From IMG/VR virus record IMGVR_UViG_3300021168_000032, positions 1 through 59,068 of that record: DNA of 59,068 bases. One strand, 5' to 3'. This document shows positions 120 through 58,155 of this stretch, piece after piece. The translations under genes and the position numbers were made by a program. The stretch comes from a virus (Duplodnaviria; Caudoviricetes). The stretch's first letter is position 1; each line of letters begins with the position of its first letter. The notes beneath the pieces were generated by a model that saw nothing but the letters and a program-made list of their open reading frames with translations, was not told the origin of the DNA and ran no database searches.

Positions 120-320
120 AAACTCCTAGACTGCCTCCCCCCCTTGCCTCTTTCCCTTGCTTGCATATAGCCCTATCACATCATGCCCCACATGCATACC
201 TCATATCCCAAATTAGCATATCCCAACGCCCCAATTTGGCCACATTCCCATGCTAGGCTTACCTGTTCTGTGAAGCTTGCCCGAGCAAGTCGGGCAAGCT
301 TCAAAAGCAGAGAGTCCCCA

Positions 321-776
321 ATGATACAACTTCTCTTATCCGACTCCATCCAAATCACCGACGGCCCACATGGCCTCATAGTCCACTTCAACTCCCAATC
401 CTTCCCCCTAACCTCAGGCCGCGCGGAGTCCATCCTCACAAACCTACTCCTCCACATCCGCTGTGGCGTGTCCCACACCCGCATCTCCGAACACTTGCGC
501 GACCACCAATCCTCAACCGTCATAGGCACCCACTGCCCATGTTGCAAACTTGAGGGGAGGCTGCTTTACGCCCAAGGGCGTAAATCATCCTCGGAAGCGG
601 ATCGTCTCATCGCTGCTCGAGCACATACTGGTGGCAAAGTAGAAGTCCGCCACATCAAGCCCGGCCTCTCCGGCGCGCAACTAAAAGCCTACGAGTCCGC
701 CTACAACACCCGCACAACCCCCCACCCAACAAACATCGTCAAATCAGTCAACAAACGCATCGAGGACCTCATATGA
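321..776 (+). CDS. hypothetical protein (CPCC motif)
   Basis: ATG 321 after a hairpin and GAGAG; C-rich codon style of the + strand genes; ATGA overlap with next gene. Confidence 0.65.
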   Translation: MIQLLLSDSIQITDGPHGLIVHFNSQSFPLTSGRAESILTNLLLHIRCGVSHTRISEHLRDHQSSTVIGTHCPCCKLEGRLLYAQGRKSSSEADRLIAARAHTGGKVEVRHIKPGLSGAQLKAYESAYNTRTTPHPTNIVKSVNKRIEDLI

Positions 777-1015
777 GCACTGACAAAACCCTAGACATCA
801 TAGCTTCCCAAACCGAAGTAGCTGCCCTCGAGGCAGCCAAAGTCAAAACCTATTCCGGCCGAATGCTCGACATCACCGCACCCGAGATCGTCGAAGTACA
901 AATTCGATCTGACGGCTCAGTCCTCTGGGTTAATATAGACGGCATCTGCCGCCTCCGTGCATGCAACATCGGCAATATGCTCGTCAATGACGAGCGCACC
1001 GGCCAAGACGATTAA
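773..1015 (+). CDS. hypothetical phage protein
   Basis: GAGGA RBS, translational coupling to upstream gene. Confidence 0.7.
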   Translation: MSTDKTLDIIASQTEVAALEAAKVKTYSGRMLDITAPEIVEVQIRSDGSVLWVNIDGICRLRACNIGNMLVNDERTGQDD

Positions 1016-1032
1016 AGAAAGAGCCCAAATCA

Positions 1033-2235
1033 ATGGCCACCCTCAAACCCTGCCTCCGCTGCAAAGGCACCGGCAAACACAACTCCGGTTACACCTGCTA
1101 TCGCTGCAACGGCACCGGCCAAGAGCCCAGCCCAAAACCCCAGGCCTATTCCAGCAAATCAGCCGAAGAACTCCTTGGATTGGATGACGAGACAAGCTCG
1201 TCATCTAATGAAGGTGGACCATCCAATAGTGACCCCCAAACTGCCGACCTCCTAAAGCTCAAAGGGCGCCTCGACGCCGCAATCTCCCAAATCGGCAGCA
1301 ACCACGTCGTGGCCCTAACAGGCCTCGCCAAGCTCAAATCCGAAATAGCTTCGACGCTCTCATCCGAGCGTCTCGCACATGCAAATGCCATTTCATCCCT
1401 CGAAGAAAAAATCGACTCCCTCTCATCCTCAATGGATGAGGCCCTGAAACTTCTCGAACAGACCCGCGAAGTCAATATCACAGTCAACACCCCGGAAGGC
1501 TCATTCACAGTCCCTGACGGCCACAAACACCCGCAATTCCTCACCCTCCTCCGAGCCGCTTCATCTCGCCAAGCAGACGGCTATCACCCCAATTGCTGGA
1601 TAGCCGGTCCAGCCGGCTCAGGCAAAACCACAGGCGGCCGCCAACTCGCATCCGCCCTAAACCTTCCATTCTTCTTCAACGGTGCCGTCTCCATGGAGCA
1701 CAAGCTAATCGGCTTCCGCGACGCCACCGGCAACTACCACACCACCCCATTCCGCGAAGGCTACACAGTCCCCGCCGTCTACCAATTCGACGACGTGGAC
1801 TCAAGCGAGAACAGCGCCCTCCTCGCCCTCAACGCAGCCCTAGCCAACGGCGAATGCGATTTCGCCGACCGCCTCATGCCCCGCCACCCAGACAGCATCA
1901 TCCTCGCAACCGCCAACACCTGGGGTCTCGGCGCAACAGCCGACTACGTAGGCCGCGTCAAAATAGACGCAGCATTCCTCTCCCGCTTCCCCGTCAAAAT
2001 CTCATGGCCCTACGACGAACCCTTCGAACTCGCCATCGGCGGAAACCCCGCATGGACCAAGCGAGTCCAAGCTGCCCGAGCAGCCGCCAAGAAAGCAGGC
2101 CTCAAAGTCATAATTGACCCGCGCCACAGCATCGCCGGCTCAGCCCTAATCCAGTCCGGCTTCACCCCAGACCAAGCCGCCGAACTCACATACTTGGCCA
2201 ACATTCCAGCGGACAAACGGAACCTGATCAATTGA
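1033..2235 (+). CDS. MoxR/CobS-like AAA+ ATPase with N-terminal CxxCxGxG zinc finger and coiled coil
   Basis: Walker A GPAGSGKT, Walker B YQFDDVD, ATANTWG, YVGR..IDAAFLSRF; N-terminal CLRCKGTG/CYRCNGTG. Confidence 0.85.
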   Translation: MATLKPCLRCKGTGKHNSGYTCYRCNGTGQEPSPKPQAYSSKSAEELLGLDDETSSSSNEGGPSNSDPQTADLLKLKGRLDAAISQIGSNHVVALTGLAKLKSEIASTLSSERLAHANAISSLEEKIDSLSSSMDEALKLLEQTREVNITVNTPEGSFTVPDGHKHPQFLTLLRAASSRQADGYHPNCWIAGPAGSGKTTGGRQLASALNLPFFFNGAVSMEHKLIGFRDATGNYHTTPFREGYTVPAVYQFDDVDSSENSALLALNAALANGECDFADRLMPRHPDSIILATANTWGLGATADYVGRVKIDAAFLSRFPVKISWPYDEPFELAIGGNPAWTKRVQAARAAAKKAGLKVIIDPRHSIAGSALIQSGFTPDQAAELTYLANIPADKRNLIN

Positions 2236-2272
2236 CGGACAAGCCGTCAATTGATCAAAAACAGGAACTCCA

Positions 2273-3208
2273 ATGACCATCATCCGCCACACCCGGTCGC
2301 TATCTCCCGCCCTAAACGGGCGGGGGATATCGACAATCCCAAACCTGCCGGGCAAATTAGTCCACTATATCATCGCTCAAAGCCTTAGCGAACTCGGAGA
2401 GTTCGCTAAGTCTAGCAAGCTTCGCGGCTCTTCCTCCTCCGACTACTGGGACATGAAGCTTGGCCTAGAAAGTGCAATCTCCTATTGCTTCACCGGCGAC
2501 GAGTCCGGCGTGGAGCAAAGCGATGCCTTGCTCCACCGCATGGAGGAGCACATCCAAATGCCCTCCACCCGCGCTCTATGGACCGACGACATCTCAGGCG
2601 CATTCCCAAACATCCCCGCCTACATCGCCGGTCAGCCCCTCAACATGCGCACCCGGCAACGGGCGCAGACGGAGTCTGCGCCCCTTGCGATCATGGTAGA
2701 CCTGGGCATATCTGCAGCCATATCAGCACAACAAGTCCGCAACCGTGGCACCGCCATCCTCGCCCTAGTCCGTGCCCTCTCAGCGCACCGCCCCATCGAG
2801 CTATGGGCCATGGATTTCGGCAGCGCCGACGATGGAGCTGCATCAGCCTACGGCTTCGGCAGCTCCAGATCCAACTGCGTCTGCGTAGCAGCCAAGATCG
2901 AAACATCGCCCCTCGACCTCTCCACAGCCTGCTACGCCCTAACCCACCCAGCCTTTGTCCGCCAAGTCCTCTTCTCCCTCGAGGAGAAGTATCACGATTT
3001 CCGCGGCGGCTGGCCATTCCGCATCAACCGCGCCCTCTCCCGCCATGAAATGGAAGTCCTCTGCGCCCCCATGTGGCCACACGTCAGCGAAACCTTGGCC
3101 CTCCCAGGCCTCCACGCCGCCGACGAATCCATGACCGACCCGGAGTCCTGGCTCAAGCGCCAGCTAGCCGAGCACGACCCCCTAAAGCTTGAGGAGGTAG
3201 TTGATTGA
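2273..3208 (+). CDS. putative vWA/CobT-like partner of the AAA ATPase
   Basis: Directly follows MoxR-type ATPase; IMVDLGISAAIS resembles a degenerate MIDAS strand. Confidence 0.55.
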   Translation: MTIIRHTRSLSPALNGRGISTIPNLPGKLVHYIIAQSLSELGEFAKSSKLRGSSSSDYWDMKLGLESAISYCFTGDESGVEQSDALLHRMEEHIQMPSTRALWTDDISGAFPNIPAYIAGQPLNMRTRQRAQTESAPLAIMVDLGISAAISAQQVRNRGTAILALVRALSAHRPIELWAMDFGSADDGAASAYGFGSSRSNCVCVAAKIETSPLDLSTACYALTHPAFVRQVLFSLEEKYHDFRGGWPFRINRALSRHEMEVLCAPMWPHVSETLALPGLHAADESMTDPESWLKRQLAEHDPLKLEEVVD

Positions 3209-3248
3209 GCTTGCGCTCAATCAACTACCACAACCGGAGACCATTCCA

Positions 3249-3527
3249 ATGACCGAGCGCAACGAGTTCAGTGTCTATCAGTTCTTCAAAGATAACTCTT
3301 ACGAAAAGGTCCGCTCTTTCGTCTCAGCCGAGGAGGCCGTCACAGCCTTCAACCACTACACAACCAACGTGGCGTCCCGCATCGGCATCACAGCCCGCGT
3401 AATCGTCACAGACGGCGGCGACTCCATCGTCTTCGAGTGGAAATCCGGCCTCGGCATCACTTTCCGCCCCCGAGATGATCCAAGCAAGCTTGGATCATCT
3501 CAAGAGGAGTCCTCAAATGACCTTTGA
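3249..3527 (+). CDS. hypothetical phage protein
   Basis: GGAG RBS, ATG 3249. Confidence 0.7.
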   Translation: MTERNEFSVYQFFKDNSYEKVRSFVSAEEAVTAFNHYTTNVASRIGITARVIVTDGGDSIVFEWKSGLGITFRPRDDPSKLGSSQEESSNDL

Positions 3528-3972
3528 TCCATTCAAGCCCATCTTCACATTCGTCGCCGACGACGGCACAAACTACCACATAGACACTCACGCTCTCCGC
3601 GACTGGTGCGTGGGCCAGCTAAAGCTGGCCCAGCTCGAAGTCTTTTTAATCCCCCTCAAATACGACCTAGCAGCCACATTCATCCCCGAGAACGTCATTG
3701 CGCCAGCTCGCATTCGCGAGCTGTCGCAAAGACCAGTCGCTTCCCTAGACCCCATCATAATGGCCAAAGATGGCACTCTCACAAACAACGCGTCCAACGT
3801 CATGCTAGTGGACGGACACCACCGCTTCTTCCTCGCCTGCCTCCGTAAACAAACATTCATCGAAGGCCACCTCCTCGAACCATCCCAATGGAAACCATTC
3901 CAGCTTCACAACCTCCCCTCAATCACCAAGGAGCAGCTGCGCCGCAGCCCCCTCCTCAAAAGGAATTATTGA
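3517..3972 (+). CDS. ParB/Srx-like domain protein
   Basis: DPIIM...VMLVDGHHRF motif; GAGGAG RBS. Confidence 0.65.
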   Translation: MTFDPFKPIFTFVADDGTNYHIDTHALRDWCVGQLKLAQLEVFLIPLKYDLAATFIPENVIAPARIRELSQRPVASLDPIIMAKDGTLTNNASNVMLVDGHHRFFLACLRKQTFIEGHLLEPSQWKPFQLHNLPSITKEQLRRSPLLKRNY

Positions 3973-4011
3973 GTTTGGGCTTTAGCCCAAACTCAAGAAA
4001 GGAGTCCTTCA

Positions 4012-4293: not shown

Positions 4294-4656
4294 ATGCCCA
4301 TCTTTCAATCGCGCCTAATCGACCTCCTCTCCGCCGCCCTCGATTGGCAGCACGCCTTCAACGAAAAGTCCCGCCTCATGGAGCACCTCGCCCGCGAACA
4401 AGACAACAAACAACTCAGCGCCCTCGCGCGCTACAGTGCAAACGACTACCTCCTTGACCCCATCAAAACAAACACGACCATCGCCCTCGAAACCGAGCGC
4501 ATCAAACACACCAAACGCTACAACGAAGCGAGGCGAGCCAAAGCTCTTCTCACAAAAGCTGAAGGAGCAATCCCCAGCATCCAGTCCCCAGAAGACATAG
4601 AAGAGCTTCGCATCGCCCAGATCGAAGAAGACTACCGCAAATCCAGAGAAGAGTAG
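4294..4656 (+). CDS. hypothetical protein
   Basis: AGGAG RBS, helical charged protein. Confidence 0.7.
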   Translation: MPIFQSRLIDLLSAALDWQHAFNEKSRLMEHLAREQDNKQLSALARYSANDYLLDPIKTNTTIALETERIKHTKRYNEARRAKALLTKAEGAIPSIQSPEDIEELRIAQIEEDYRKSREE

Positions 4657-4745
4657 ACGCGCCTAACGGCGCGTCTACAAACCATTTCCAATACCGAAGA
4701 CAGTTGACATCCGGCTGTCTTCGCTCTTGGAAAAGGAAAAATCAA

Positions 4746-4976: not shown

Positions 4977-5068
4977 GGCATCGGCAGTGGGCCGTTAGGC
5001 CCACTGCCTCGCCTTAACCTTCAAAAGGGCAGGGCAGTGAGCTAAAGCTCACTGCAAGAGAAGGGCAG

Positions 5069-5359
5069 ATGAAAACATTTCCATTCGGTCGCCACAAAGA
5101 TGTCCCACTCTCCGAAGTCCCTATGGACTACCTAGAATGGTATCTCCGTACTACAAAGGCCCAAATAGCCGAGATCGAAGCCGAGCTAGAACGCAGAGAG
5201 CTAGCCGAGCTTGCAACCGGCACCTGGAAAGAAAAACTAATCAAAGCAGGCTACCGCACCCTCATGAAACAATACCACCCAGACTCCGGCGGCTCCACAT
5301 CCGACGCCCAGCAAGTCAACGCCGCCTTCGAGTGGCTTAAGAAACATGCAGCGAGCTAA
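5069..5359 (+). CDS. DUF3820-like N-terminus fused to a J-domain-like C-terminus
   Basis: FPFGRHKD..LSEVPMDYLEW; YRTLMKQYHPDSGGS...VNAAFEWL (HPD motif). Confidence 0.75.
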   Translation: MKTFPFGRHKDVPLSEVPMDYLEWYLRTTKAQIAEIEAELERRELAELATGTWKEKLIKAGYRTLMKQYHPDSGGSTSDAQQVNAAFEWLKKHAAS

Positions 5360-5405
5360 AGCTCGCTGCATATTTCTTAATCCAAAAACACTAAGGAGCC
5401 AATTA

Positions 5406-5636
5406 ATGGAAAACAACATAACCTACACAGCCACATCCCTATCCGACATAGCCGATCACTTCGAGATGTTTGCAAAACGCATCGAGGAGCGTCTTCGCCA
5501 TCCCGGTCGCATGACCCAGGTGCAAATAAAAATACACGTAGCTCAAATCCAGATATGGCGAGAAGCCTCCGAAACCCTTCGCCACACCACAATTCAGGCG
5601 AAGGCAGAGCCTTCGCCTGAAGGAGCAGCACAATGA
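5406..5636 (+). CDS. hypothetical protein
   Basis: TAAGGAG RBS. Confidence 0.6.
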   Translation: MENNITYTATSLSDIADHFEMFAKRIEERLRHPGRMTQVQIKIHVAQIQIWREASETLRHTTIQAKAEPSPEGAAQ

Positions 5637-6084: not shown

Positions 6085-6458
6085 AATCCATCATCGCAGC
6101 TCTAGGAATTGCGTTTGCACCTGCCGCAAACGCAAGTCCATGCCATCACTATGCCACATGGCACTACCCCTATCCTCAGCCCTCATGTGGGGGTCGGGCC
6201 GGGGTTGGGCAGAACCCAACCCCAGATAATGCCTCCAACTGGTACGTGGAGATTCAGCTCCCCACAGAAGCTGAATCTCAAGATCCAAGGAGCATTCCTT
6301 TCCCAGTCCTCTTAGCTCAGTCTAAAGATGAACTCAACATACTTCTCCTCTCACGGAAATGGAGCAAAACCCTCCAGAAGCCCTGGATTGACACTTGTGT
6401 TCGCACCTCAACTCCCGAACAATGCGAAACAGCCTGGGAAAAACTAAACAACAAGTGA
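6081..6458 (+). CDS. putative secreted protein
   Basis: Signal-like MKSIIAALGIAFAPAANA; four Cys; ATGA coupling. Confidence 0.6.
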   Translation: MKSIIAALGIAFAPAANASPCHHYATWHYPYPQPSCGGRAGVGQNPTPDNASNWYVEIQLPTEAESQDPRSIPFPVLLAQSKDELNILLLSRKWSKTLQKPWIDTCVRTSTPEQCETAWEKLNNK

Positions 6459-6732: not shown

Positions 6733-7061
6733 AAGACCACCGCTCAGTCGGCATAAAGGCTGCAAGCCTCTACGCCTCCTACGAGTTCTACTTTGGCAAG
6801 CGTGGAGGACAAGCCTCCACGCTTGCAAACCAGGAAACCAAACCCATGCCTCGCTCTATCTCATTCCGCGCCTTCAGCAACGCACTCCGTATCCTTCGCG
6901 CTCTCGACTCCTACGAAGTCTCCTTCCTAACCGATGATCAATGGGAGAAGTTTCGCACTAACCCATACGACTTCTTCATGATAACCACTGACTACAATGC
7001 CGGCCTCATCTGGGAAGCCATCCAGCGCCGGCAGCCAGAGGAGCTAAAACAGAATGTCTAG
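6729..7061 (+). CDS. hypothetical protein (true start may be 6846)
   Basis: ATGA overlap; internal CAGGA..ATG. Confidence 0.55.
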   Translation: MKDHRSVGIKAASLYASYEFYFGKRGGQASTLANQETKPMPRSISFRAFSNALRILRALDSYEVSFLTDDQWEKFRTNPYDFFMITTDYNAGLIWEAIQRRQPEELKQNV

Positions 7062-7290
7062 AGAATATCACACCTGCCGCAAATGCCGCAGAACCAGCTA
7101 TGATCCATTATGGGACATGTACCAAACCGGCCCCCGCCACTGGGAGCATTTCAGCCACTTAACCATGTCAAAAATCCTCACCCTTCCACCCAGCACTCGT
7201 GAGCGTTTCGAAACATGGTGGGAGGCTGAAAAGATTGAGTGGCGGCAAGCTTGTCTTGCCGCCACTCAAGAAGGAGAGCCCAATGGCTGA
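7054..7290 (+). CDS. hypothetical protein (CxxC)
   Basis: Overlaps neighbours in operon order. Confidence 0.55.
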   Translation: MSREYHTCRKCRRTSYDPLWDMYQTGPRHWEHFSHLTMSKILTLPPSTRERFETWWEAEKIEWRQACLAATQEGEPNG

Positions 7291-7525: not shown

Positions 7526-7758
7526 GCTACAAACCAGAAGTCCAAACCGACTCCTCGGGCAAATGGTACAGCAACGCCGCCCGCTTCGCCACCCTCGAAG
7601 AGGCCGACGCCTACAATCTCGACCTCGCATGGCGCTGGACTGCAGTCCGCGAAAGCCGCGTGATCGAAAGCGACGAACCAGTCAATTTCCGCTGGGATTG
7701 GATCTCACGCAAGGGCATCCTCCTTAGCGTGCCCTCACAATGTGAGGGCACGCTATGA
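7522..7758 (+). CDS. hypothetical phage protein
   Basis: GGAGGT RBS; WYSNAARFAT.EEA. Confidence 0.7.
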   Translation: MSYKPEVQTDSSGKWYSNAARFATLEEADAYNLDLAWRWTAVRESRVIESDEPVNFRWDWISRKGILLSVPSQCEGTL

Positions 7759-8057
7759 TGCTCTGGATACAAACTGATCCGCGAGTCGATCTCGGCTTCC
7801 TCCCCTCCTTCCTAAGCGACACCGACCCTCGTCCAGCCGCCAAGCAAATTGACTCCAATTACACCCACGGAGGTGGATGGCGTCCTCAGCCCGGCTTCGA
7901 GTCTCTCAAAGACTACACCTTAAAATACTCTGGCGACCCACCAATGAAGCCGCTCGCTATGACCAACCTACGCCACGAACTAATCTGCTTCTATCCCTAC
8001 AGCTACCTCGCCATCTTCCAACCCGACGGCAGCTTCGAAGTGTGCCGCGTCGATTAG
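7755..8057 (+). CDS. hypothetical phage protein
   Basis: Y.HGGGW.P, YSGDPP, QPDGSFEVCRVD; coupled to upstream gene. Confidence 0.75.
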   Translation: MMLWIQTDPRVDLGFLPSFLSDTDPRPAAKQIDSNYTHGGGWRPQPGFESLKDYTLKYSGDPPMKPLAMTNLRHELICFYPYSYLAIFQPDGSFEVCRVD

Positions 8058-8099
8058 GTTTGCAAGCTAAAGCTTGCAAACCTAAAAAAGGAGTATCCA

Positions 8100-8393: not shown

Positions 8394-8620
8394 TCGGCCC
8401 CGGCAAATACGACGCAGAGGCCACCCTAGTCATGGAGTCCGCCAAAGCCGCTGGCGTCATCATAATAGTCATCGATGGCGACAGAGGTGAGGGCTTCTCA
8501 ATCCAAGCCACCCTAGAAGTAACCCTTCTACTCCCAAAAATGCTGAGGATGATAGCAGATGATCTCGATCCTGCCGTCTCTGCTCTTTCATCCTCACAAC
8601 GTGAGGATGAAAGAGCATGA
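8390..8620 (+). CDS. hypothetical phage protein
   Basis: GGAGG RBS; GPGKYD...GEGFS. Confidence 0.7.
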   Translation: MIGPGKYDAEATLVMESAKAAGVIIIVIDGDRGEGFSIQATLEVTLLLPKMLRMIADDLDPAVSALSSSQREDERA

Positions 8621-8973
8621 ACTTCCACGATCCATCCCGCACTCGCCTAGGCAACTGGCGTCCCTGCTGGCTCAACTCAGTCATTGCCCTCCCACCCATC
8701 CAGCTGGAGCCGCACGAGACCGACCCATCCTTAATCCATCTAACCATCTGCCACGGTTCTCGTGGCATCTGGCTCGAGAAAGACATCCCCAAAACAGAAC
8801 TCCACAAAATCCTTCACTTTTGGGAAGTGGACCCCGAAGGCACCTTCATGCAGCTCTTCGGTCTAACCGACTGGCCCCACGAGCACGCACGTATCGCAGC
8901 CGCAATGCGACCAAAACCAAAAGCCATCGAACCGCAAGTCCGAGTCCCTATCCCAATCGAGGACTTGATATGA
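8617..8973 (+). CDS. hypothetical protein
   Basis: ATGA coupling at both ends. Confidence 0.6.
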   Translation: MNFHDPSRTRLGNWRPCWLNSVIALPPIQLEPHETDPSLIHLTICHGSRGIWLEKDIPKTELHKILHFWEVDPEGTFMQLFGLTDWPHEHARIAAAMRPKPKAIEPQVRVPIPIEDLI

Positions 8974-9176
8974 AAATATCGGAAAGACAGCGGAGAGATC
9001 GTGTCCTTTACAACGACCTCATCCAGCTATTTCCGCCTCCTCCACATCTAATCCAGCGCGAAATTCGTCTCTGGCTCTACGAGGAAGTGATCCAGGCTTC
9101 TCAAGAGAAGCCTGGATCAAGACTATATCTTTGGTTTCTGGAAAGAATGGAACGTCTCAACTGGGAGAAAGTATAA
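8970..9176 (+). CDS. hypothetical protein
   Basis: GAGGA RBS; TAATG overlap with next gene. Confidence 0.5.
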   Translation: MKISERQRRDRVLYNDLIQLFPPPPHLIQREIRLWLYEEVIQASQEKPGSRLYLWFLERMERLNWEKV

Positions 9177-10219: not shown

Positions 10220-10257
10220 GCGAGCTTTGCTCGCTTAAGCTCTGACAAAGGCAGAAC

Positions 10258-10812: not shown

Positions 10813-10856
10813 TAACTTGGATGACATCAGTCATTCCTATCAGAGGGACTGAATAG

Positions 10857-47663: not shown

Positions 47664-47709
47664 CGCTCACACCCTCCTGAAGTTTGAGCAAGCTTGTCTT
47701 GCTCAAACT

Positions 47710-50408: not shown

Positions 50409-50728
50409 CTCAACTCCTGCATCGCAGACTTCAGACTCTCCTCCCCTGCCGAAGTCCGACGAGGCGGACTTCGGCAAAGCCTCGAGGTGAAGCCTGACAC
50501 ATCAGGGTTCATGGTGTCGAACGGTTCGTGCGGCACATGCTGATCGTTACTCGAATACACCATATACGAGTCAGGCCCCCTGCTTGCTAACGAACCGGTC
50601 GCCGAGAGCTTCGGTCTCGGATCACCCGCAGGCTTCGACCCACTCTTCGGGCGTGTCCGAATGTTAGGCGTCTTACATTCCGGCTCCTTCTCAGGAGCCG
50701 GAATCCCAATCAGCATGTTCAGCCTCAT
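50390..50728 (-). CDS. hypothetical protein
   Basis: AAGGA RBS; fills gap in operon. Confidence 0.5.
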   Translation of the reverse strand: MRLNMLIGIPAPEKEPECKTPNIRTRPKSGSKPAGDPRPKLSATGSLASRGPDSYMVYSSNDQHVPHEPFDTMNPDVSGFTSRLCRSPPRRTSAGEESLKSAMQELRCGDKR

Positions 50729-51950: not shown

Positions 51951-52030
51951 CGTAGTCTCCTGTTGGAGCCCTTTGGGCTCCAACAGGAGCCTACAGGGCA
52001 GTTGCTTTAAGATAGCGAAGCTCTGCTTCG

Positions 52031-52222
52031 CTATCTTAAACCTTTCATTGGTCCAGTTGGAATTTCCTCAGCCACTTTCTTCGCCTTCTTACCGAGGCCT
52101 GCAGCCTTCATCTTCCCTCCTCTCCGTCTAAATGGACTCTCGGCAGCCCCTAACGGCTCCGCCTTCATTGAGGGCGGCGTCTGCATTGGCCGCTTCCCGC
52201 CCATCAACAGATTCTTAACCAT
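52031..52222 (-). CDS. small basic protein
   Basis: AAGGAGG RBS. Confidence 0.55.
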   Translation of the reverse strand: MVKNLLMGGKRPMQTPPSMKAEPLGAAESPFRRRGGKMKAAGLGKKAKKVAEEIPTGPMKGLR

Positions 52223-52721
52223 ATTTCAGCTCCTCCTTCAGCAGTGGCACTCCTCCGATATGGTGCCACACCGGACAGAACGGCGGATTAATTTCCATGC
52301 CCAATTGGATCGTCTCTTTCAGAGACGATCCAATTGGACGAGCAGTATCCCGCGTCAGATATTTGCAAACCACAATAGGTAATATCTGTGACTTAGGCAT
52401 CTGGAGCGCCATTGCCACCACGGGAATATACAGCCCATGCAGCTGCTCTTCAGCCTCCAAAGTCCACGTCAGCTTGCTCTCCAACAGAATGGCCCACTGC
52501 TTAGCTTTCCCAAAGAAATCCGTCTGACACACTCCCACCCCTGCATCATCCTTAAATTCCCACCACATCCCATACCGAAACTTCGTCCCCAGTCCCTTCG
52601 CCAGCGCCCTCTCATACCTAATTCCTTCCCCCCGCACATTTTTCCCTGCCCTCGAGAAAGGAATAAACGCAGGCTTCCCCTCAATCTGCCTTGCCCACCT
52701 CAACCCACTCACCTGCCTCAC
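52215..52721 (-). CDS. putative PD-(D/E)XK nuclease (resolvase-like)
   Basis: G.RYE, CQTDF, LLESKLT, A..QL..LY. Confidence 0.55.
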   Translation of the reverse strand: MRQVSGLRWARQIEGKPAFIPFSRAGKNVRGEGIRYERALAKGLGTKFRYGMWWEFKDDAGVGVCQTDFFGKAKQWAILLESKLTWTLEAEEQLHGLYIPVVAMALQMPKSQILPIVVCKYLTRDTARPIGSSLKETIQLGMEINPPFCPVWHHIGGVPLLKEELKYG

Positions 52722-52924: not shown

Positions 52925-53603
52925 TTTTTCCCCCCACACCCGGTCTCGGCATGTGGGCTGCCTCCGGCAGCCCAGGCAACTCTTCCTCAATCATCATCAC
53001 ATCCACCGGCACCTGCCTAAGAGCATTCTTAAACTTCCAGTAGTATCCAGCGATCAGGTCCATCTTATCCGTCCCATTCACAATCCGCCTCGCATTCACG
53101 GGATCTTCAATACCCTTCGATTTGGACAAATACTTAGGCAGGCCGACACCTGTGAACCACCCATAGACCATACCATCATAACTAACCAGCGCACTAGTCT
53201 GCGAGTGCAGCATCAGATGTGCCTCGGGATGAATATTAGCATGGACATTATAGCGCTCCCTAAGAAATTTCTGCCCATTCTTATAATTCTCCTCCCACGT
53301 CAGTTGCACATGTCCGCGCCCATAATAACATTGCCCATACGGCCCGACAGGCTTACCATAAGACTTGCCTGATCCCTTACCATATTCCTCAATAGGCTGC
53401 ATAGTATAGGCAGTTTCATGGTAAAATGTGGCCAGCGCATAAGCCAGCCACATCGTACCATCATTCGGATTATTCTTCTCAAAATGCTGCTCCCACACCT
53501 CAAGCAGATAATTCATGCCATCCACTTGGCTCTGCGTGAGCGTACCACCAAACAGATCTTTCCGCACCGTATCAAAATAGTACTTTCTCTCGTAAGGCAT
53601 CAT
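52902..53603 (-). CDS. endolysin, glycoside hydrolase family 19
   Basis: LAY.LAT.YHET..TMQPIEE.G, YYGRGHVQLTW..NY, ARRIVNGTD. Confidence 0.88.
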   Translation of the reverse strand: MMPYERKYYFDTVRKDLFGGTLTQSQVDGMNYLLEVWEQHFEKNNPNDGTMWLAYALATFYHETAYTMQPIEEYGKGSGKSYGKPVGPYGQCYYGRGHVQLTWEENYKNGQKFLRERYNVHANIHPEAHLMLHSQTSALVSYDGMVYGWFTGVGLPKYLSKSKGIEDPVNARRIVNGTDKMDLIAGYYWKFKNALRQVPVDVMMIEEELPGLPEAAHMPRPGVGGKSEKSAEA

Positions 53604-53610: not shown

Positions 53611-54492
53611 TTAACTGGTTGGGCATGGACAAGTTCCTGGCGCCTGCTCAGTAAGTGTATTCCCATTAATCAGGATAAAATTACCGCCACTCCCCTTATT
53701 AGTAAGAAAATTAATCGGCGGTCCCACCACTGTCAAATATATCGGAGGTGGAGATCCAAATGGGGCAGACCCATCTGTCCCCAAATTAGCCGCACTCAAA
53801 TCCGCGTTAATAAACTTCCTCCTATTAGAAACCACAGTCAAATCAACAAAACTAGCCGTAGAGGATGCCCAAACATTTCCCATCGCAGGAGCCAATATAT
53901 TCACCCCGGCAATCATCAGAACAGCCCCAGCTGGGCCATCCTGCATCATCCCAGATCCAATCCATCCTCCACTCATAATCCCCAGAGGCGCATCATTAGC
54001 ATAGACCTGCATCACTTGTGCAACCGAATCAACTGAGAAAATAACATTCCACATCTGATTAACTGGCAAATGATAAGTCCCATTAAAGAATACGGTAGAC
54101 AGAAAATTATTTCCAACCTCAAGCGCAAAAGTAGGGGCGCCTCCTCCCAGCACAGTCGAAATCTGCTTATTAATAAATTCAGTGGCATTAAAGCCTATAT
54201 CAGTCGTATGAGTGGCATCAGCTGGACAGCAGAACCAAGCAGAGTACAAAAAGTATCTAAAACTACTCGGAAACAGTCCCTGCAAACTAGATTGCAACCC
54301 ACCCCCATTCTGATTAAACTGAACGAGCGGCACCGGGTTAACCGTCGGCGTGCAAGTCGGCCCAGTAGGCGGAACGACAGGTGCATCAGCGACAGAGGAG
54401 CATAGTTGTTTAGCAGCTCTAGCTTTACCTGCGACAAGCGCAGGTAAAGCTAGAAGACCAGCAGCCGTATCTCTTCTATTTAGGAGGCGCAT
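53611..54492 (-). CDS. exported beta-rich (LamG/ConA-like) protein with Tat-like signal
   Basis: MRLLNRRDTAAGLLALPALVAGKARA-A; YSAWF, W.VIFSVD, QVYAND, NKGSGGNF; six Cys. Confidence 0.6.
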   Translation of the reverse strand: MRLLNRRDTAAGLLALPALVAGKARAAKQLCSSVADAPVVPPTGPTCTPTVNPVPLVQFNQNGGGLQSSLQGLFPSSFRYFLYSAWFCCPADATHTTDIGFNATEFINKQISTVLGGGAPTFALEVGNNFLSTVFFNGTYHLPVNQMWNVIFSVDSVAQVMQVYANDAPLGIMSGGWIGSGMMQDGPAGAVLMIAGVNILAPAMGNVWASSTASFVDLTVVSNRRKFINADLSAANLGTDGSAPFGSPPPIYLTVVGPPINFLTNKGSGGNFILINGNTLTEQAPGTCPCPTS

Positions 54493-54721
54493 GATCTGGG
54501 GCCTTGTCAGGCCCCAGAGCAGGAGCAGCTTTTTCAGCTTTAATCCTGTCTAGTTCCCGCTGCAGTTTAATGATTGTCACGTAGGCGTTTGCCACCTTAT
54601 CCAGCGCTTCCTCCCTCTGCTGCCTCAGCGCTTGTATCACATCATTGGACTCCTGTGCTTGCACAGGAGTCCAAAATACAGCTAACAAAATGAGAAAGCT
54701 CGTCTTTCTCATTTTGTTCAT
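54476..54721 (-). CDS. small secreted coiled-coil protein
   Basis: MRKTSFLILLAVFWTPVQA-Q followed by heptad helix. Confidence 0.65.
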   Translation of the reverse strand: MNKMRKTSFLILLAVFWTPVQAQESNDVIQALRQQREEALDKVANAYVTIIKLQRELDRIKAEKAAPALGPDKAPDHAPPK

Positions 54722-55899
54722 TTCAGCTTGACATGCGCAGCAGTTGCAAGCTCGTTCACTTCCCTCTCCAGCGTCTGCACCTCAGTTTCAATGGCAGGGA
54801 TCTTGGCCACATTTTTATGTGCATTGACAACCTGCGTCTGCACCTCCACCTGAGCCGCCTGAATTTCTGCCTGCGTAGAAGTCGCCGACAGCGTCCCTGC
54901 TCCCAAGAAGACGTCCCAGGCTGCAACTTGCCCACTCATCCAAGCCGAAATCGCATGACCAGTCCCTCCCGGCACCGGATCAATCCCAACCTCTATATTA
55001 TAGATTGAGGAAGAGCCAACGCAGAGTGGCAACGTCCCACCAGTCCTATCATGACAGACTGCTGTTCCCCCACCTGGCAACCCAGTAATGGTCCCCGTAA
55101 AAGTTGGATTATTCCATGTCCCCCCATTAATAGTCGGATTATTAATAGTGGGATTATTCTCCGCAACCAGCGGCCCAGTCCCATCCAGCGGCAAGGCCAG
55201 GGCAGCGGCTACGCCGCTACCCAGCCCCGTCAGTGTACTGACTGATCCGGCTGGTGGAGTTCCCCAAGTGGGCGCTCCGGACGCATTTCCAAACAGCACC
55301 TGGGAAGAGTTACCTAGCGGCAGACCACCAAATATACCATTGTTATTATACTGGAGGGCGCCATTGGCTCCAAGAGGAATGGTTCCGCCGCCCACACAAT
55401 TATACCCGCCAGTAAGCTGATCCCAAATAAGATTGCTGTTGACATCGTACACCATCTGCCGATAAATGCCCGACCCCCAGATGAGCGCCTCTCCAGACCC
55501 ATTCAGCACAATCGGGTTAGGATTCACAATGGTCTGGTAGGGATCTTGCCACGTCGTCTTAGGAGTGGTCGTTCCCGGAGTATAGAAAAAGACTATCCCA
55601 TTCGACAGCGGTTTCCCATTCGCATCCGAAAACTGTGTATACCCATTCGGAATAATAACTGCCGTGGGTGTTTGGGAGTGTGCTTCGCACACTCCCAAAA
55701 CCCACAAACCACCAAACAACAGGAGAGAAGCTCCCCTTCTTCTTTGCGCGCCGTTCAAAGAACGGCGCGCAAAGGTCGGAGTCTGAGCCTCACTCACTGA
55801 GGGGATCAAAAATGAAGCCCAGACTCCTAATGAGGCGGCTAGAAGGGCAGGGGCTTGCCGCCTCAATGAAACGGAGACGGCGCTGAAGCGCCGTCTCAT
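54718..55899 (-). CDS. tailspike/fibre with P22-type head-binding-like domain, preceded by signal peptide(s)
   Basis: PNG.TQFSDANGKPL.NG.VFFY.PGTTTPKTTWQD....NPNPIVL...GEA.IWGSG.YRQ.V.D.N.NLIWDQ; ALQYNN.G.FGG; C-terminal coiled coil. Confidence 0.75.
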   Translation of the reverse strand: MRRRFSAVSVSLRRQAPALLAASLGVWASFLIPSVSEAQTPTFARRSLNGAQRRRGASLLLFGGLWVLGVCEAHSQTPTAVIIPNGYTQFSDANGKPLSNGIVFFYTPGTTTPKTTWQDPYQTIVNPNPIVLNGSGEALIWGSGIYRQMVYDVNSNLIWDQLTGGYNCVGGGTIPLGANGALQYNNNGIFGGLPLGNSSQVLFGNASGAPTWGTPPAGSVSTLTGLGSGVAAALALPLDGTGPLVAENNPTINNPTINGGTWNNPTFTGTITGLPGGGTAVCHDRTGGTLPLCVGSSSIYNIEVGIDPVPGGTGHAISAWMSGQVAAWDVFLGAGTLSATSTQAEIQAAQVEVQTQVVNAHKNVAKIPAIETEVQTLEREVNELATAAHVKLK

Positions 55900-55919
55900 A
55901 GCGAATATCCTATAGTCAT

Positions 55920-56291
55920 CTATCCGCCATTAACTGGTAAGGGGTTGGCCGTGCTTACTGGCACACATGAGTAGACCGTGGAGCCATTCACAACCTGCGA
56001 CCGCTGCACGCAAATATTCAGCGGGTTCGTCCCAGGAGCCGAGGCTGTTCCGCTGCCCGAAGAGGTCACCGGCAGTCGGTTACTGCTGGAGATGGGCACA
56101 CAGGAGGTGGTCTTCACTCCATTCGTGACCGTGCTCACCTGGAAACAGAGGGTAATCAGCTTCTGGCTTTGCGCCGTTGGCGCAAAGCCAAGAGCAACTC
56201 CCAACAAGATGAAAAGGGCTATGTCTTTGACTAGGCTCAGCCTGACGCGCCGCACAATGTGCGGCGCGTCAGCAATGCGTGATGATGCCAT
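55920..56291 (-). CDS. secreted protein with two C-x13-CVP(I/V)S..N.LPV repeats
   Basis: h-region IALFILLGVALGFAPTAQS; duplicated Cys-pair motif. Confidence 0.7.
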   Translation of the reverse strand: MASSRIADAPHIVRRVRLSLVKDIALFILLGVALGFAPTAQSQKLITLCFQVSTVTNGVKTTSCVPISSSNRLPVTSSGSGTASAPGTNPLNICVQRSQVVNGSTVYSCVPVSTANPLPVNGG

Positions 56292-56808
56292 TGGTGACCA
56301 CAGTGGTTGCAGGCGTCAGAATACCAGCTGCGCAAGAGACACCAGGAAGACTGTTCGCTGTGAAAGAGAGGGCAGACATAACCCCAGTCAGTGTCAGACT
56401 GGTGCCCACCGCCGCACCTGCCGGAGCGATGGTCGCGCCATTACTCATCAGGAGCTGACCTGCCGTGAAGCCCGACGTAGGCGTAGTGCCAGCTGTCAAA
56501 GTGGCAGTGGAAGTCCCTAACACACTCACCGGGAGAGGGGTGGATGCACTCACTGGCACGCAGGAGGTGGTCGCAATCCCATTCACCAGCGTGGTGATCG
56601 CCAGACACAGGGACGCAGACTGTTGGGATTGGGCTGGACAAGCCAGCCCAATTCCAAAAAGCGAGATAACTGCGAGAATAGTTAGCTTTACGCGCCCAAC
56701 TAAAGTTGGGCTGCCATCCAGCTTTACGCGCCGTCCTAAAGGACGGCGCGTAGCAGAGAACAGCCCTTTAGATTTGGGCTGAACGAAGTGAAGCCCAAAT
56801 CTAATCAT
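56269..56808 (-). CDS. secreted protein with the same Cys-pair motif and fibre-like C-terminus
   Basis: ILAVISLFGIGLACPAQS; LCLAI...SCVPVSASTPLPV; ends VTNGIITHC. Confidence 0.65.
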   Translation of the reverse strand: MIRFGLHFVQPKSKGLFSATRRPLGRRVKLDGSPTLVGRVKLTILAVISLFGIGLACPAQSQQSASLCLAITTLVNGIATTSCVPVSASTPLPVSVLGTSTATLTAGTTPTSGFTAGQLLMSNGATIAPAGAAVGTSLTLTGVMSALSFTANSLPGVSCAAGILTPATTVVTNGIITHC

Positions 56809-57352
56809 TTTTGTCCACCTCGATAGTCTTCGTGAGTCCAGGAGAGCCAGCACCTAACTCTCCTTGCCCAGCCGTCACAAAAGATATGGTGATGGGTGAG
56901 GGAGGACCAGCTGCGCTCCAGCCTTTCTGGATCTCCATGAGGCGCGGCTTGTTCGCGTTGGAGTCTACCACCTCGAGCAGCTCCCGGATTGAAAACTGGT
57001 TAGGATCTTCGGCGATCCGGTCTGTCAGCTCATCTACTGCCATCTCGCCGAGGCGCGCTTGCTTTGCGCGAAGGTCCAGCATTTCGGCTTCAGCTTGGCG
57101 CGTGTAGTGTGCGACCAGCTCTTGGAATGCGGGGTTGGCCGTCGCTAGATTGGAAATGTACTGGGGGGTGTAGCCGCCTGCAACTGCTACGTCGATGTAG
57201 GATGCTCCAGTGGCAATAAGCTGGGCTAATCTGTGGTGGGAGGATTTTAGCTTCACCACTGAGACGTTGCCCATGTGGCCGGGCTTCTCCTTGTGGGGGA
57301 AGAAGTCATCACCCAGCAGCTCATCAAGAATTGGGTCCGCTCTAAAGGACAT
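56801..57352 (-). CDS. HTH protein, putative terminase small subunit
   Basis: HHRLAQLIATG.S..DVA...GYT.QYIS.L...PAFQELV; C-terminal ITISFV; early position in late operon. Confidence 0.55.
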   Translation of the reverse strand: MSFRADPILDELLGDDFFPHKEKPGHMGNVSVVKLKSSHHRLAQLIATGASYIDVAVAGGYTPQYISNLATANPAFQELVAHYTRQAEAEMLDLRAKQARLGEMAVDELTDRIAEDPNQFSIRELLEVVDSNANKPRLMEIQKGWSAAGPPSPITISFVTAGQGELGAGSPGLTKTIEVDKND

Positions 57353-57364
57353 CTACAATCCTAT

Positions 57365-57613
57365 TCATGGAGTCGAAAGTTGAGCCGAAGGCTCAACTGA
57401 GACTCCTCGGCTGAGCGTCGCTTCACGCGCCCGGAACTTGGCGCAGATGGCTTCAATTTTATGGTGGTTCTTCGCCACGGCTTCTAGAGATATGACTAGC
57501 TCTTTAGGAGGATTGAGGAAAGCTTGTCTTTCCTCAATCCTCCTAGCCGCCTCCTGGTTCAGTCGGATGACCGCGTAGGTCTCAGCATCCAGATCGGTTA
57601 GAGTTTGGCCCAT
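57365..57613 (-). CDS. hypothetical protein (possibly leaderless)
   Basis: ATG 6 nt after a -10-like box. Confidence 0.55.
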   Translation of the reverse strand: MGQTLTDLDAETYAVIRLNQEAARRIEERQAFLNPPKELVISLEAVAKNHHKIEAICAKFRAREATLSRGVSVEPSAQLSTP

Positions 57614-57619
57614 TGTGGG

Positions 57620-57647
57620 AGTATGCGCTACTGCCGACTTTTGTCAA
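57620..57647 (-). promoter_or_regulatory. sigma70-type promoter heading the leftward operon
   Basis: TTGACA-N16-CATACT on - strand. Confidence 0.5.
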
Positions 57648-57810
57648 GGGGAAATCGGCCATATGGGTAAAAATACCTATAGCGTGGCCCAACTACTGAG
57701 ATGGAATGGCCTTCGGCCACTCCCTGTGGGTCAGATGTTTTTTGCAAAACTACGCCTGCCATCACAACAGTCTCGGTTAGGATCTCTATCAGGCCGCCCT
57801 CCCCCCTTCA

Positions 57811-57834
57811 AACCGGAGCCTTTCGGCTCCGGTT
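57811..57834. terminator. GC-rich hairpin, possible terminator
   Basis: AACCGGAGCC-TTTC-GGCTCCGGTT just past the stop of 57845-58045; GAAA loop on - strand; weak U-tail. Confidence 0.4.
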
Positions 57835-57844
57835 CTGGATGGTC

Positions 57845-58045
57845 CTAACCGAATCTCAACTGCTCGGTCGCGTTGAACTCGTCCACCGCATTGAAGTCAT
57901 CAATGCTGTCCCACACATCCTTAAAGCAGTCAAAGAACCCATTTTCCTGCCAATACAAACCGTGCTCCTCATCTCGATAGATATCGAACCCCTGATATTT
58001 GCCAACCGCATACCCGCCTCGAGACATCCAACCAGTCGTCGTCAT
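57845..58045 (-). CDS. small acidic protein
   Basis: GGAGGT RBS before ATG 58045. Confidence 0.55.
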   Translation of the reverse strand: MTTTGWMSRGGYAVGKYQGFDIYRDEEHGLYWQENGFFDCFKDVWDSIDDFNAVDEFNATEQLRFG

Positions 58046-58155
58046 CGCAACCTCCATTTGAACGTCCCCATCATGACACGGCAATGAGGCCGAGTCAAGC
58101 TCGGCCTCATCACATTTTGTGACTGGGGATGGACCTTGCGGTCCATCCCACTCCT

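Follow-up and report, generated by a model that had tools for sequence, protein, structure and literature searches.

Why should a phage genome be strewn with near-perfect palindromes whose arms are unrelated to one another and whose centres recur? We address this question in IMG/VR virus record IMGVR_UViG_3300021168_000032, the circularly permuted genome of a soil podophage, which was analysed over its whole length of 59,068 nt and is referred to here as the window. The first-pass annotation of this DNA had described a genome-wide family of more than 40 palindromes, which proved to be real and an undercount: a scan for perfect arms separated by loops of 3–8 nt, in which the first 130 nt (poly-A/T) were skipped, identified 94 perfect inverted repeats with arms of at least 9 bp (arms 9–18 bp, spacers 3–8 nt). 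The explanation that we favour, and in which we have roughly even confidence, is that template switching at the DNA level, during asymmetric replication, creates these palindromes and maintains their perfection, and that they are filtered by selection and partly co-opted.

A discrete class of perfect hairpins

The density of hairpins in the window is far above that in shuffled controls. Compared with 20 dinucleotide shuffles, there were 99 hairpins with arms of at least 8 bp versus 4.1 expected (shuffle maximum 9), 80 with arms of at least 10 bp versus 0.4 (shuffle maximum 2), or 13.5 per 10 kb, and 57 with arms of at least 12 bp versus 0; within genes, 48 were found where synonymous-codon shuffles gave 2.05. 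The length distribution is bimodal, with a chance-like decay to 8 bp and then a separate 9–18 bp population (90 versus about 1 expected). Observed and expected counts were 148 and 107 at 5 bp, 19 and 6.4 at 7 bp, 5 and 2.2 at 8 bp, 13 and 0.9 at 9 bp, and 56 and 0 at 12–18 bp, so that the excess of perfect repeats increases with arm length, as maintenance by template switching predicts. The stems are nearly perfect, as had been claimed: pairing is perfect in 60 of the 83 window hairpins with at least 11 pairs, and in 24 of 27 in one relative (L044). Regular spacing was not found along the window (coefficient of variation 1.2, with a 5.5-kb gap at 21.1–26.7 kb), and an Rfam search at gathering thresholds returned 0 matches. 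Two independent assemblies, X7 and X8, match long stretches over many of the hairpins with 0–1 differences.

What the hairpins have in common is their centre, and all of the motif positions quoted in the first-pass annotation were found exactly. The centre GAGCTAAAGCTC lies at 5039, 5353, 12103, 12419 and 16271, AAGCTAAAGCTT lies at 8064 and 19680, and CGAGCAAAGCTCG lies at 14062 and 16623 and, as its complement, at 10221 and 28124; GACAAGC occurs at 2238, 29029 and 47611 and at eight further sites, and GCGAAGC at 11635 and 42637 and at four further sites. The arms are mostly unrelated, with 31 of 4371 arm pairs scoring at least 7 (versus 8.8 in shuffles), and sharing of arms is seen in a small subfamily (12096, 12411, 47678 and 8054) and in a second group with a GCGCGCC-like motif at 55.7–56.8 kb. 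The closing pair is 5′C-G3′ in 55 of the 94 hairpins and G-C in 27, and an inner AGC is present in 16. Dominant loops are TAAA/TTTA (12 of 28 tetraloops), ACAAG/CTTGT (12 of 19 pentaloops) and GAA/TTC (10 of 36 triloops); the G-rich strand has as its frequent loops TTTA, CTTG(T), GAA, GTA and GTTA. With the innermost possible pair counted, spacers measure 1 nt (5 hairpins), 2 nt (18), 3 nt (32), 4 nt (11) or 5 nt (19). Loops are compressed to 1–5 nt (1–3 nt in 55 of about 118), and zero-spacer palindromes are absent. GNA loops closed by C-G are described as very stable DNA loops in PMC3201870 and PMC13037366. Four of the hairpins were folded as single-stranded DNA (ssDNA), and their predicted stability is equal on both strands.

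Gene context was assigned from our own gene calls, made with a heuristic strand-restricted caller and supplemented by six hand-added open reading frames (ORFs) for the analysis of distances to stops and starts; every hairpin listed below is a perfect hairpin from the scan, is given without strand, and is followed in brackets by its arm length and loop. Of the 94, 48 are intragenic, 29 intergenic and 17 lie across gene ends, and reading frames are uninterrupted through all 48 intragenic hairpins. A stop codon falls in one arm of 15 of the 17, a class that contains all 12 of the cases for which the first-pass annotation had reported this arrangement. Among the hairpins that include a stop codon are those at 2225–2257 (14 bp, ACAAG; stop in the left arm), 3196–3229 (15 bp, TTGC), 3969–3996 (12 bp, TTTA; a ribosome-binding site (RBS) lies 3 nt past its end), 4653–4678 (11 bp, TAAC), 5346–5371 (11 bp, TAAA), 8054–8085 (14 bp, TAAA; ssDNA fold of −15 kcal/mol on either strand), 10210–10244 (16 bp, TTT), 12096–12121 (11 bp, TAAA), 12411–12438 (12 bp, TAAA), 16262–16291 (13 bp, TAAA), 19667–19704 (17 bp, TAAA), 47678–47712 (15 bp, CTTGT; the stop codon of the terminase gene), 52006–52040 (16 bp, TCT) and 54684–54718 (15 bp, CTCGT).

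More widely, 45% of the hairpins are centred no more than 45 nt from a stop codon, in a zone amounting to 14% of the genome, and hairpins are present there at 43 of 90 genes. Intragenic hairpins that precede a stop include 3472–3501 (13 bp, CAAG; stop 26 nt on), 5593–5621 (13 bp, AGA; 15 nt), 7235–7269 (15 bp, CTTGT; 21 nt), 9495–9525 (13 bp, TAAAG; 19 nt), 15690–15720 (12 bp, TACAAGC; 29 nt) and 34005–34046 (18 bp, ACGGAG; 41 nt), and 37430–37458 (13 bp, TTA) lies at a gene end. Near starts are 6109–6135 (10 bp, ACCTGCC; intragenic, start 28 nt back), 33907–33943 (17 bp, AAA; across a gene start), 54418–54454 (16 bp, ACAAG; 38 nt into a gene) and 55671–55699 (13 bp, TTC; 20 nt into a gene). 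Intergenic hairpins occur at 271–303 (14 bp, GCAAG on the + strand; 5′ of the first + gene), 4983–5008 (11 bp, GTTA), 5034–5055 (9 bp, TAAA), 11554–11587 (15 bp, CAAG), 11626–11650 (11 bp, GAA with GC closing pairs), 19699–19722 (10 bp, TTTA; 5′ of PolA), 38024–38045 (9 bp, GAAT), 39346–39370 (11 bp, TGC), 40317–40339 (10 bp, TTC; identical in the relative L003) and 54645–54674 (13 bp, CTTG).

Elsewhere within genes are 1183–1205 (9 bp, ACAAG), 2384–2410 (12 bp, GGA), 2661–2683 (10 bp, GGA; a co-occurring strain contig is divergent over 2656–2732), 3611–3632 (9 bp, TAAA), 6796–6826 (13 bp, ACAAG), 9088–9119 (14 bp, CAAG), 10597–10629 (15 bp, AGA), 10654–10681 (12 bp, TAGC), 17267–17295 (13 bp, TTT; ParB-methylase gene), 19974–19994 (9 bp, AGT) and 20808–20833 (9 bp, GCTTCAGA), both in PolA, 27195–27222 (10 bp, CCTTGTGA), 31794–31816 (10 bp, CGA), 35730–35750 (9 bp, GTT), 37362–37385 (9 bp, ATTAAC), 42630–42650 (9 bp, GAA), 43909–43947 (17 bp, ACAAG; in a length-variable segment of the transglycosylase gene, ssDNA −25 kcal/mol), 44018–44040 (9 bp, CTCCT) and 52954–52974 (9 bp, TCC). 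Hairpins are also found at 50677–50704 (12 bp, TCTC) and 54495–54518 (10 bp, TGTC). The densest zone, 55700–58150, holds about 14 hairpins in about 2.5 kb among small leftward ORFs, and several of its arms carry the GCGCGCC-like motif; in contrast to the remainder of the genome, its GC skew is near zero. Hairpins in this part of the window are 55742–55774 (15 bp, AAA; a member of the group with that arm motif), 55874–55897 (10 bp, TGAA), 56164–56190 (12 bp, GTT), 56242–56272 (14 bp, AAT), 56628–56652 (10 bp, ACAAG), 56725–56752 (12 bp, TAAA), 57378–57398 (9 bp, GAA), 57505–57545 (18 bp, CTTGT), 57811–57834 (10 bp, TTTC), 58084–58110 (11 bp, TCAAG) and 58126–58149 (10 bp, TTGC).

Strand asymmetry and change among relatives

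The two strands of the genome differ strongly and uniformly in composition. At four-fold sites read on the + strand, C and G make up 0.45 and 0.12 in + genes and 0.41 and 0.11 in − genes, so that over the whole genome (1–59,068) the + strand is C-rich with a four-fold C/G of 3.8 in + and − genes alike; A/T at these sites is 1.2–1.6. The sign of the GC skew is constant in all 2-kb bins except the last (56–58 kb), where the skew is about zero. In vertebrate mitochondrial DNA, comparable skew results from the long single-stranded state in asymmetric replication, and the uniform skew of the window, read from base composition, suggests unidirectional or strand-displacement replication with a long-lived single strand.

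The orientation of the loops follows the same axis. BLAST of the hairpin flanks was used to merge 285 hairpins, found in the window and in 13 loci, into 219 positional groups, with the sense strand in the loci set by the longest ORF. Among these groups ACAAG is on the C-rich strand at 10:1 in the early arm, where that strand is sense, and at 9:3 in the late arm, where that strand is antisense; the corresponding ratios are 12:2 and 4:0 for TAAA and 5:1 and 3:0 for TAC, and GAA favours the G-rich strand in both arms (C-rich:G-rich 4:7 and 5:13). Counted on the sense strand, early genes have ACAAG:CTTGT at 12:1 and late genes at 3:10. Loop orientation thus tracks DNA strand and not transcription, meaning that RNA loops differ between the two transcription arms. 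Among 71 mismatches in near-perfect hairpins, 15 were G.T and 11 A.C (sense), and the wobble-pair (G.U) signature of RNA was not found; 33 were C.T on the C-rich strand, a dominance in line with the strand bias of the genome. Together with loops of 1–5 nt and the absence of zero spacers, these data support the proposal in the first-pass annotation that the feature is probably a DNA-level one.

To place the hairpins in an evolutionary setting, we collected relatives from IMG/VR and JGI metagenomes with portal, polymerase, ATPase and exonuclease queries; individual loci are denoted by L and a number. Close relatives (72–95% protein identity, about 70–85% nucleotide identity) contain 164 hairpins with arms of at least 10 bp in 200.8 kb, about 8 per 10 kb, with some loci overlapping. 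Distant portal relatives (37 loci, about 48% identity) contain 12 in 457.5 kb, or 0.26 per 10 kb, and Caulobacter phage Kuura, the closest cultured PolA relative (36% identity), contains 0. A portal search of genome contigs recovered two distant relatives in metagenome-assembled genomes (Actinomycetota and Patescibacteria), neither with hairpins nor with a host assignment. The hairpin trait is restricted to one phage clade, and the load varies within it.

Retained orthologous hairpins change in concert. In 23 comparisons comprising 281 pairs, filtered for at most one unpaired position, 38 pairs (13.5%) were altered in both arms and 8 in a single arm; flank divergence was 19%, and independent hits would yield about 1% double changes. 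Covarying stems, which the first-pass annotation had put forward as something to look for, are therefore present in relatives. In the PolA hairpin at 21096–21128 (15 bp, GAA), two-sided changes in L043/L042 and L045 keep pairing perfect and alter amino acids, and the L041 and L044 versions are imperfect. At 29016–29048 (14 bp, ACAAG), L044 retains a hairpin in which both members of 6 of the 14 pairs differ, and 28115–28145 (14 bp, TTT; stop 12 nt on) is retained in L043 with two double changes. Also retained are 13060–13087 (11 bp, TCAAGG; inside the PD-(D/E)XK gene) in L043 and L044 and 50447–50476 (12 bp, ACGAGG) in L003, and the intragenic 40601–40624 (9 bp, ATCAGC) is identical in L001 and L003. 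The intragenic hairpin at 29345–29376 (14 bp, TAAA) is shorter in L043/L042 and decayed in L041/L044.

Imperfect repeats have also become perfect. The intragenic repeat at 49684–49712 (12 bp, ACAAG) is a quasi-palindrome in L001, L003 and L004 and perfect in the window only. Likewise, L042 and L043 are 99% identical over 13 kb except for one patch of about 55 nt in the UDG/exonuclease gene, where the imperfect sequence of L044 is seen in L042 tidied into a perfect composite palindrome. Births within genes without a change in length took the form of multi-base replacements at 52301–52337 (17 bp, TTC), where L003 has a segment of equal length that is unpaired (3 of 17), and at 47596–47632 (16 bp, ACAAG; 31 nt into the portal gene), where pairing is short or lacking in relatives. 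Other births were in-frame insertions: 19253–19287 (15 bp, CTTTA) lies in a 42-nt insertion (ORF 19237–19671) missing from four relatives, and 14054–14082 (13 bp, AAA; intragenic) lies in 27–42 nt of extra in-frame sequence present in the window only, with its right arm once tandem-repeated. The intragenic 12308–12334 (11 bp, GCAAG) is missing in four relatives with no change in sequence length, 41508–41537 (13 bp, TAAC), deep inside a 653-aa gene, is missing in L001, and 42823–42852 (12 bp, ACGTAG; intragenic) has another hairpin nearby in L003. Where the ortholog has no hairpin, both arms diverge beyond the flanks. Turnover is high, 178 of the 219 positional groups being seen in one genome (with partial coverage), and the load stays high. 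Five near-identical pairs (99.8–99.99%; L053/L060, L060/L041, L059/L049, L059/L043 and L057/L045) together have one arm difference, too few for single events to be seen. Taken together, the concerted double changes, the perfected quasi-palindromes and the in-frame insertions and replacements fit a process that copies local sequence into a mirror arm, which the first-pass annotation had raised as one of its options.

Template switching as a proposed explanation, and its rivals

In the Ripley model of template switching, an inverted repeat folds and one of its arms templates the other. The process was first observed in phage T4 and turns imperfect inverted repeats into perfect ones, and the excess of perfect repeats grows with arm length (Lavi et al. 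2018, PMC5941160); arm homogenization together with spacer inversion is described in PMC8604942. Applied to the window, the process would begin with the G/T-rich minus strand being single-stranded for long periods because replication is, as we propose, strongly asymmetric (unidirectional or strand-displacing). Short inverted repeats would then fold around compact C-G-closed centres and the polymerase would copy across them, which, to judge from the evolutionary patterns, would erase mismatches, pass changes in one arm to the other, and extend arms outward and also inward to 1–5 unpaired bases. Hairpins that harm proteins or signals would presumably be removed by selection. Hairpins do accumulate at stop-codon/RBS junctions, protein ends and length-variable segments, and placement at junctions fits two readings: in so packed a genome no other place tolerates them, or they act on mRNA.

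Some survivors may have been co-opted on mRNA, most clearly those whose 3′ arm holds the Shine-Dalgarno (SD) sequence of the next gene, in which case translation of that gene would be coupled to the upstream gene. In the late operon, the 3′ arm (sense) carries AGGAG of the next gene at 26654–26683 (13 bp, ATTC; kept in L041 and covarying in L044), at 35367–35395 (13 bp, TTC, GAA in sense; overlapped by 35379–35402, 9 bp, TCAAGG) and at 51957–51989 (15 bp, TTT), and 37190–37214 (11 bp, TTC; identical in L003) includes GGAGG and the start codon. At these four places an anti-SD 5′ arm at the end of the upstream gene pairs with the SD of the next gene, which in its predicted pairing is a classic design for translational coupling. 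Early-region counterparts are 7725–7755 (14 bp, AAT) and 8581–8617 (17 bp, AAC), each with a stop 3 nt on, which hold in the 3′ arm the RBS-like GAGG of the next gene and the RBS-like GAGGA plus the next start, respectively.

Several findings weigh against template switching as we have framed it. First, intermediates of 7–8 bp are scarce (the 19 and 5 given above), whereas purely gradual growth should leave more of them; their scarcity suggests that selection sets a minimum length or that hairpins arise in one step. Second, unrelated hairpins recur at one place across genomes, a pattern that looks like demand for a hairpin at a given place. The junction at 16262 has inverted-repeat sequence in five of five aligned genomes with differing arms (that of L041 imperfect); other hairpins occupy the 12411 junction in L044 and L045; L043 and L044 have different hairpins at 14314–14342 (13 bp, TCC; 31 nt into the Sak4-like gene); and L003 has unrelated hairpins of 13 bp at 38068–38092 (11 bp, TGT; intergenic), 15 bp at 45451–45473 (10 bp, TTC; portal gene) and 11 bp at 50340–50376 (17 bp, AGG; 32 nt into a gene). 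Third, neither arm is consistently the new one when the ortholog has no hairpin (20 versus 11), so simple overwriting of one arm is not the rule. Fourth, there is a single likely loop inversion, at the intergenic 16610–16648 (18 bp; 5′ of the ParB-methylase gene), where the loop is AAA in the window and TTT in L044; loops of the remaining retained hairpins are kept or point-mutated. Fifth, the skew is equal in the sister lineage L041/L060/L001 but its hairpins number about 3 per 10 kb, so skew alone does not determine load. Sixth, neutral-site skew predicts most of the loop polarity, although it falls somewhat short for early-arm ACAAG and TAAA, and the polarity thus speaks against recognition of an RNA loop without proving a strand-specific process or function. 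Finally, the ends of 35 of the 94 hairpins fall in the range −20 to +30 nt relative to a start codon, most often at 12–20 nt, directly upstream of the SD sequence, and 12 end within about 7 nt of the next start, several with the SD or start codon in the 3′ arm; such RBS-centred placement suggests a role on mRNA.

The hairpins might instead be RNA-level elements in the first place (3′-end protectors or processing sites, partial terminators without a U-tail, RBS insulators or coupling devices), with their perfection secondary, an account that we regard as possible but unlikely. The clustering at stop codons, the 12–20 nt peak before starts, the SD-bearing 3′ arms of the four late-operon hairpins and the repeated use of the same junction by different arms all favour it. 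Transcript data consist of small contigs from two metatranscriptome runs of different studies (X11 and X12) that cover 3 and 6 of 30 bins, uncovered bins being uninformative. Contigs from both runs lie over the PEP-CTERM gene (10836–11535 and 11242–11535) and both stop at 11535, in the 3′ arm of a separate large-loop stem (10 bp, 22-nt loop) downstream of this gene, which hints weakly that RNA ends of this phage lie at stems. Against an RNA-level origin, 48 of the 94 hairpins are intragenic, many of them hundreds of nucleotides from any junction, mismatches show no preference for the G.U type, the loop is reversed where genes run the other way, Rfam gave no match, and the loops of 1–3 nt in 55 of about 118 are below the preference of RNA hairpins. 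T-tails (at least four T in the 8 nt downstream, sense) follow 4 of the 94, against a background of about 7%. The first-pass annotation had held that these are not ordinary terminators, and intrinsic terminators were rejected as a candidate on these tails and on the intragenic half.

That the hairpins are ssDNA signals, acting on the displaced G/T-rich strand as scattered sites of lagging-strand initiation or protein loading, is in our view quite unlikely. Parallels exist in the single-strand origins of rolling-circle plasmids and in the mitochondrial light-strand origin. This reading is favoured by the very strong and uniform strand asymmetry, by loop orientation that is tied to DNA strand in both transcription arms, by the presence of GNA loops (very stable according to the sources named above) among the common loops of the G-rich strand, and by high turnover at steady load, as for a signal needed in number and not in place. 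Pfam scans of 50 of about 90 proteins, including 20 small early and 10 late-arm proteins, found no primase domain, with no AEP or TOPRIM match in the DUF3987 helicase, although a primase may have been overlooked among the roughly 40 unscanned proteins. The same scans yielded no candidate for a hairpin-specific protein. Speaking against ssDNA signals are the irregular spacing with its 5.5-kb gap, the three to four times lower hairpin number in a sister lineage of equal skew, a polarity mostly as neutral skew predicts, and equal predicted stability on both strands for the four hairpins folded. A T7-type primase site, for which TTGTC in the G-strand form of the ACAAG loop would be a candidate, was considered and set aside. 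One elaboration, to which we assign the same low probability, is that in a clade without its own primase and with unidirectional replication that leaves a long-lived displaced strand, the approximately 90 strand-polar hairpins along that G/T-rich strand would be structure-defined start or loading sites for synthesis of the complementary strand, continuously renewed by fold-back copying, such that structure and loop, and never sequence, are conserved.

A mobile or recombinational origin, as REP/MITE-like copies or as cassette boundaries like attC or PeSL elements, is very improbable and already largely refuted. In its favour are the two small arm-sharing groups, the close similarity of the L044 hairpin at the 12411 junction to the window hairpin at 47678, and the 19253 hairpin, a whole-hairpin insertion with a 5-nt flanking direct repeat. 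Most arms are unrelated, however, flanking direct repeats of at least 4 nt occur at 7 of the 94 hairpins versus 7.2 at random, half of the hairpins lie in frame within genes, and no transposase, integrase or HUH protein turned up among the 50 scanned proteins. With change scored as presence or absence of a gene in at least one of four lineages, it affected 17 of 25 hairpin junctions and 16 of 20 hairpin-free junctions (Fisher p = 0.5). REP, BIME and MITE elements were rejected since there is no conserved sequence, no RAYT/Y1 protein among the 50 scanned and no excess of flanking repeats, and PeSL/attC boundaries because hairpin junctions are no richer in gene gain or loss. An N4-type promoter has a 5–7 bp stem and a 3-nt loop and is read by a giant virion RNA polymerase; this class was rejected too, stems here being 9–18 bp and no giant polymerase gene being present (no ORF exceeds 780 aa). 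Of the interpretation offered by the first-pass annotation, then, the DNA-level, non-terminator and mirror-copying parts are supported, whereas cassette sites, REP-like elements and N4-type promoters are not.

It is scarcely credible, finally, that the hairpins are double-strand operator palindromes for a dimeric regulator, for which the common centre (G)AGC-loop-GCT(C) might conceivably serve as the binding site of a dimer but from which 94 sites with unrelated 9–18 bp arms and no zero-spacer palindromes differ, or an assembly or amplification artefact of the kind that multiple-displacement amplification produces as inverted chimeras, given that frames are open through 48 intragenic hairpins, that the X7 and X8 assemblies agree, and that the trait and covarying arms are found in relatives from other samples, a conservation that already refutes the artefact reading.

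The phage, known systems and meaning

The window is near-complete in eight soil metagenome runs, and no close match was found among deposited phages (megablast of 4.6 kb of the window against 50,697 phage records). A relative's contig links window position 58.4 kb to position 88, indicating that the genome is circular or permuted and that the window ends within a divergent control region; at the window ends (1–130 and 59020–59068) this divergent intergenic region has long A/T and A/C low-complexity runs, and similar A-rich runs occur at loose contig ends of relatives, upstream of the ParB-methylase gene at 16663. Between about 0.3 and 22.5 kb the genes point rightward, and from there to about 58.8 kb they point leftward. 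The longest ORF (45321–47663, − strand) encodes a P22-type portal of 780 aa, and further products are a large terminase, the transglycosylase and a collagen-repeat fibre protein.

Pfam scans delineate a replication module at 12859–22464 (+ strand) that is candidate machinery for the copying process. It encodes a PD-(D/E)XK exonuclease, a Sak4-like AAA_24 ATPase, DUF669, a ParB-methylase, a UDG-like plus polymerase-related protein, DUF1937, a family A DNA polymerase (19729–21261) and a DUF3987 helicase. The polymerase, matched by 11 of 50,697 phage records at a best identity of 36%, is seemingly split into a UDG-like plus polymerase-related segment (18078–19244), the DUF1937 gene, whose product is nucleoside deoxyribosyltransferase-like, and the polymerase domain at 19729–21261. 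The helicase (21277–22464) is 45–72% identical among lineages whose polymerase is 84–95% identical, and this far greater divergence suggests module exchange.

A CobS/MoxR-like AAA ATPase gene (phrog_249) followed by a DUF7192 gene (1033–3208) is a pair present in all four lineages. The gene for the PEP-CTERM-motif protein (10857–11444) looks like a moron, with a TTGACA-containing stretch upstream (region 10790–11540). A strain contig that co-occurs in run X7 loses 210 nt and gains 7 other bases at 8963–9174, and the small gene at 8970–9176 is gone from it. Two small ORFs without Pfam matches, 16358–16603 and 4294–4656, are present in three hairpin-rich lineages and not in hairpin-poor L041/L060; as correlates of hairpin load they are a lead only, since there is one poor lineage.

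Several known systems resemble the hairpins in part. Like the template-switch repeats of PMC5941160, they show an excess of perfect arms, imperfect versions in kin, concerted arms and occurrence in coding and non-coding DNA; they differ in extreme density (13.5 per 10 kb, at least 10 bp), a discrete 9–18 bp class, location of half of them in genes with amino-acid changes, restriction to one clade and an extreme one-strand bias. In the Mimiviridae, a 'hairpin rule' places palindromes at transcript ends (PMC4402537). The likeness lies in a structure-only signal with unrelated arms, directly after genes and genome-wide, but the Mimiviridae element is an RNA 3′-end processing and polyadenylation signal with a dedicated viral enzyme, whereas half of the phage hairpins are intragenic, their loop polarity goes by DNA strand and no RNase III-like gene was found among the proteins scanned.

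The stable intercistronic hairpins of phage T4, PeSL cassettes and RNase III sites of T7 all lie between packed phage genes, and they share with the window hairpins proximity to ribosome-binding sites and a recurring loop on variable stems. They number about ten to a few dozen, however, are intergenic and often imperfect, and have RNA-specific, sense-oriented loops; PeSL elements also mark gene shuffling, which by the junction test the phage hairpins do not. Priming hairpins of the G4/phiX type, plasmid single-strand origins and mitochondrial OriL are likewise strand-specific hairpins on a displaced strand and go with a uniform A+C versus G+T bias at neutral sites, but each replicon has just one or a few such structures, conserved and imperfect, compared with about ninety perfect, fast-evolving and irregularly spaced ones here, for which priming is putative. 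REP/BIME elements with RAYT, integron attC sites and N4 hairpin promoters are all recognized as folded DNA; each has a dedicated enzyme, a conserved family or boxes, stems that are imperfect and a place between genes, features that the phage hairpins appear not to share, their stems being perfect, half of them lying in genes and no integrase or transposase having turned up among the 50 scanned proteins.

That short perfect inverted repeats can be enriched, and that template switching can account for this, is already known. The unusual points in this phage are the scale, the discrete length class, the spread into coding sequence, the restriction to a clade and the extreme uniform strand bias that goes with these. 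We found no earlier description of hairpin-rich phage genomes in the literature, which is no proof that they are unpublished. In practical terms, such genomes will mislead terminator predictors and repeat finders. If the hairpins were functional, in DNA priming or in RNA processing or coupling, they would be structure-only signals without sequence conservation, which are rare in bacteria and in the viruses that infect them. If template switching is the right explanation, this clade would be a natural extreme of a mutational process that is usually seen as rare hotspots, one in which fold-back copying rewrites about 5% of the genome, coding sequence included, and in which rate, strand bias and protein cost would be measurable comparatively. 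The C/G of 3.8, among the strongest uniform biases computed for a double-stranded phage, points to an unusual form of replication in this uncultured soil group.

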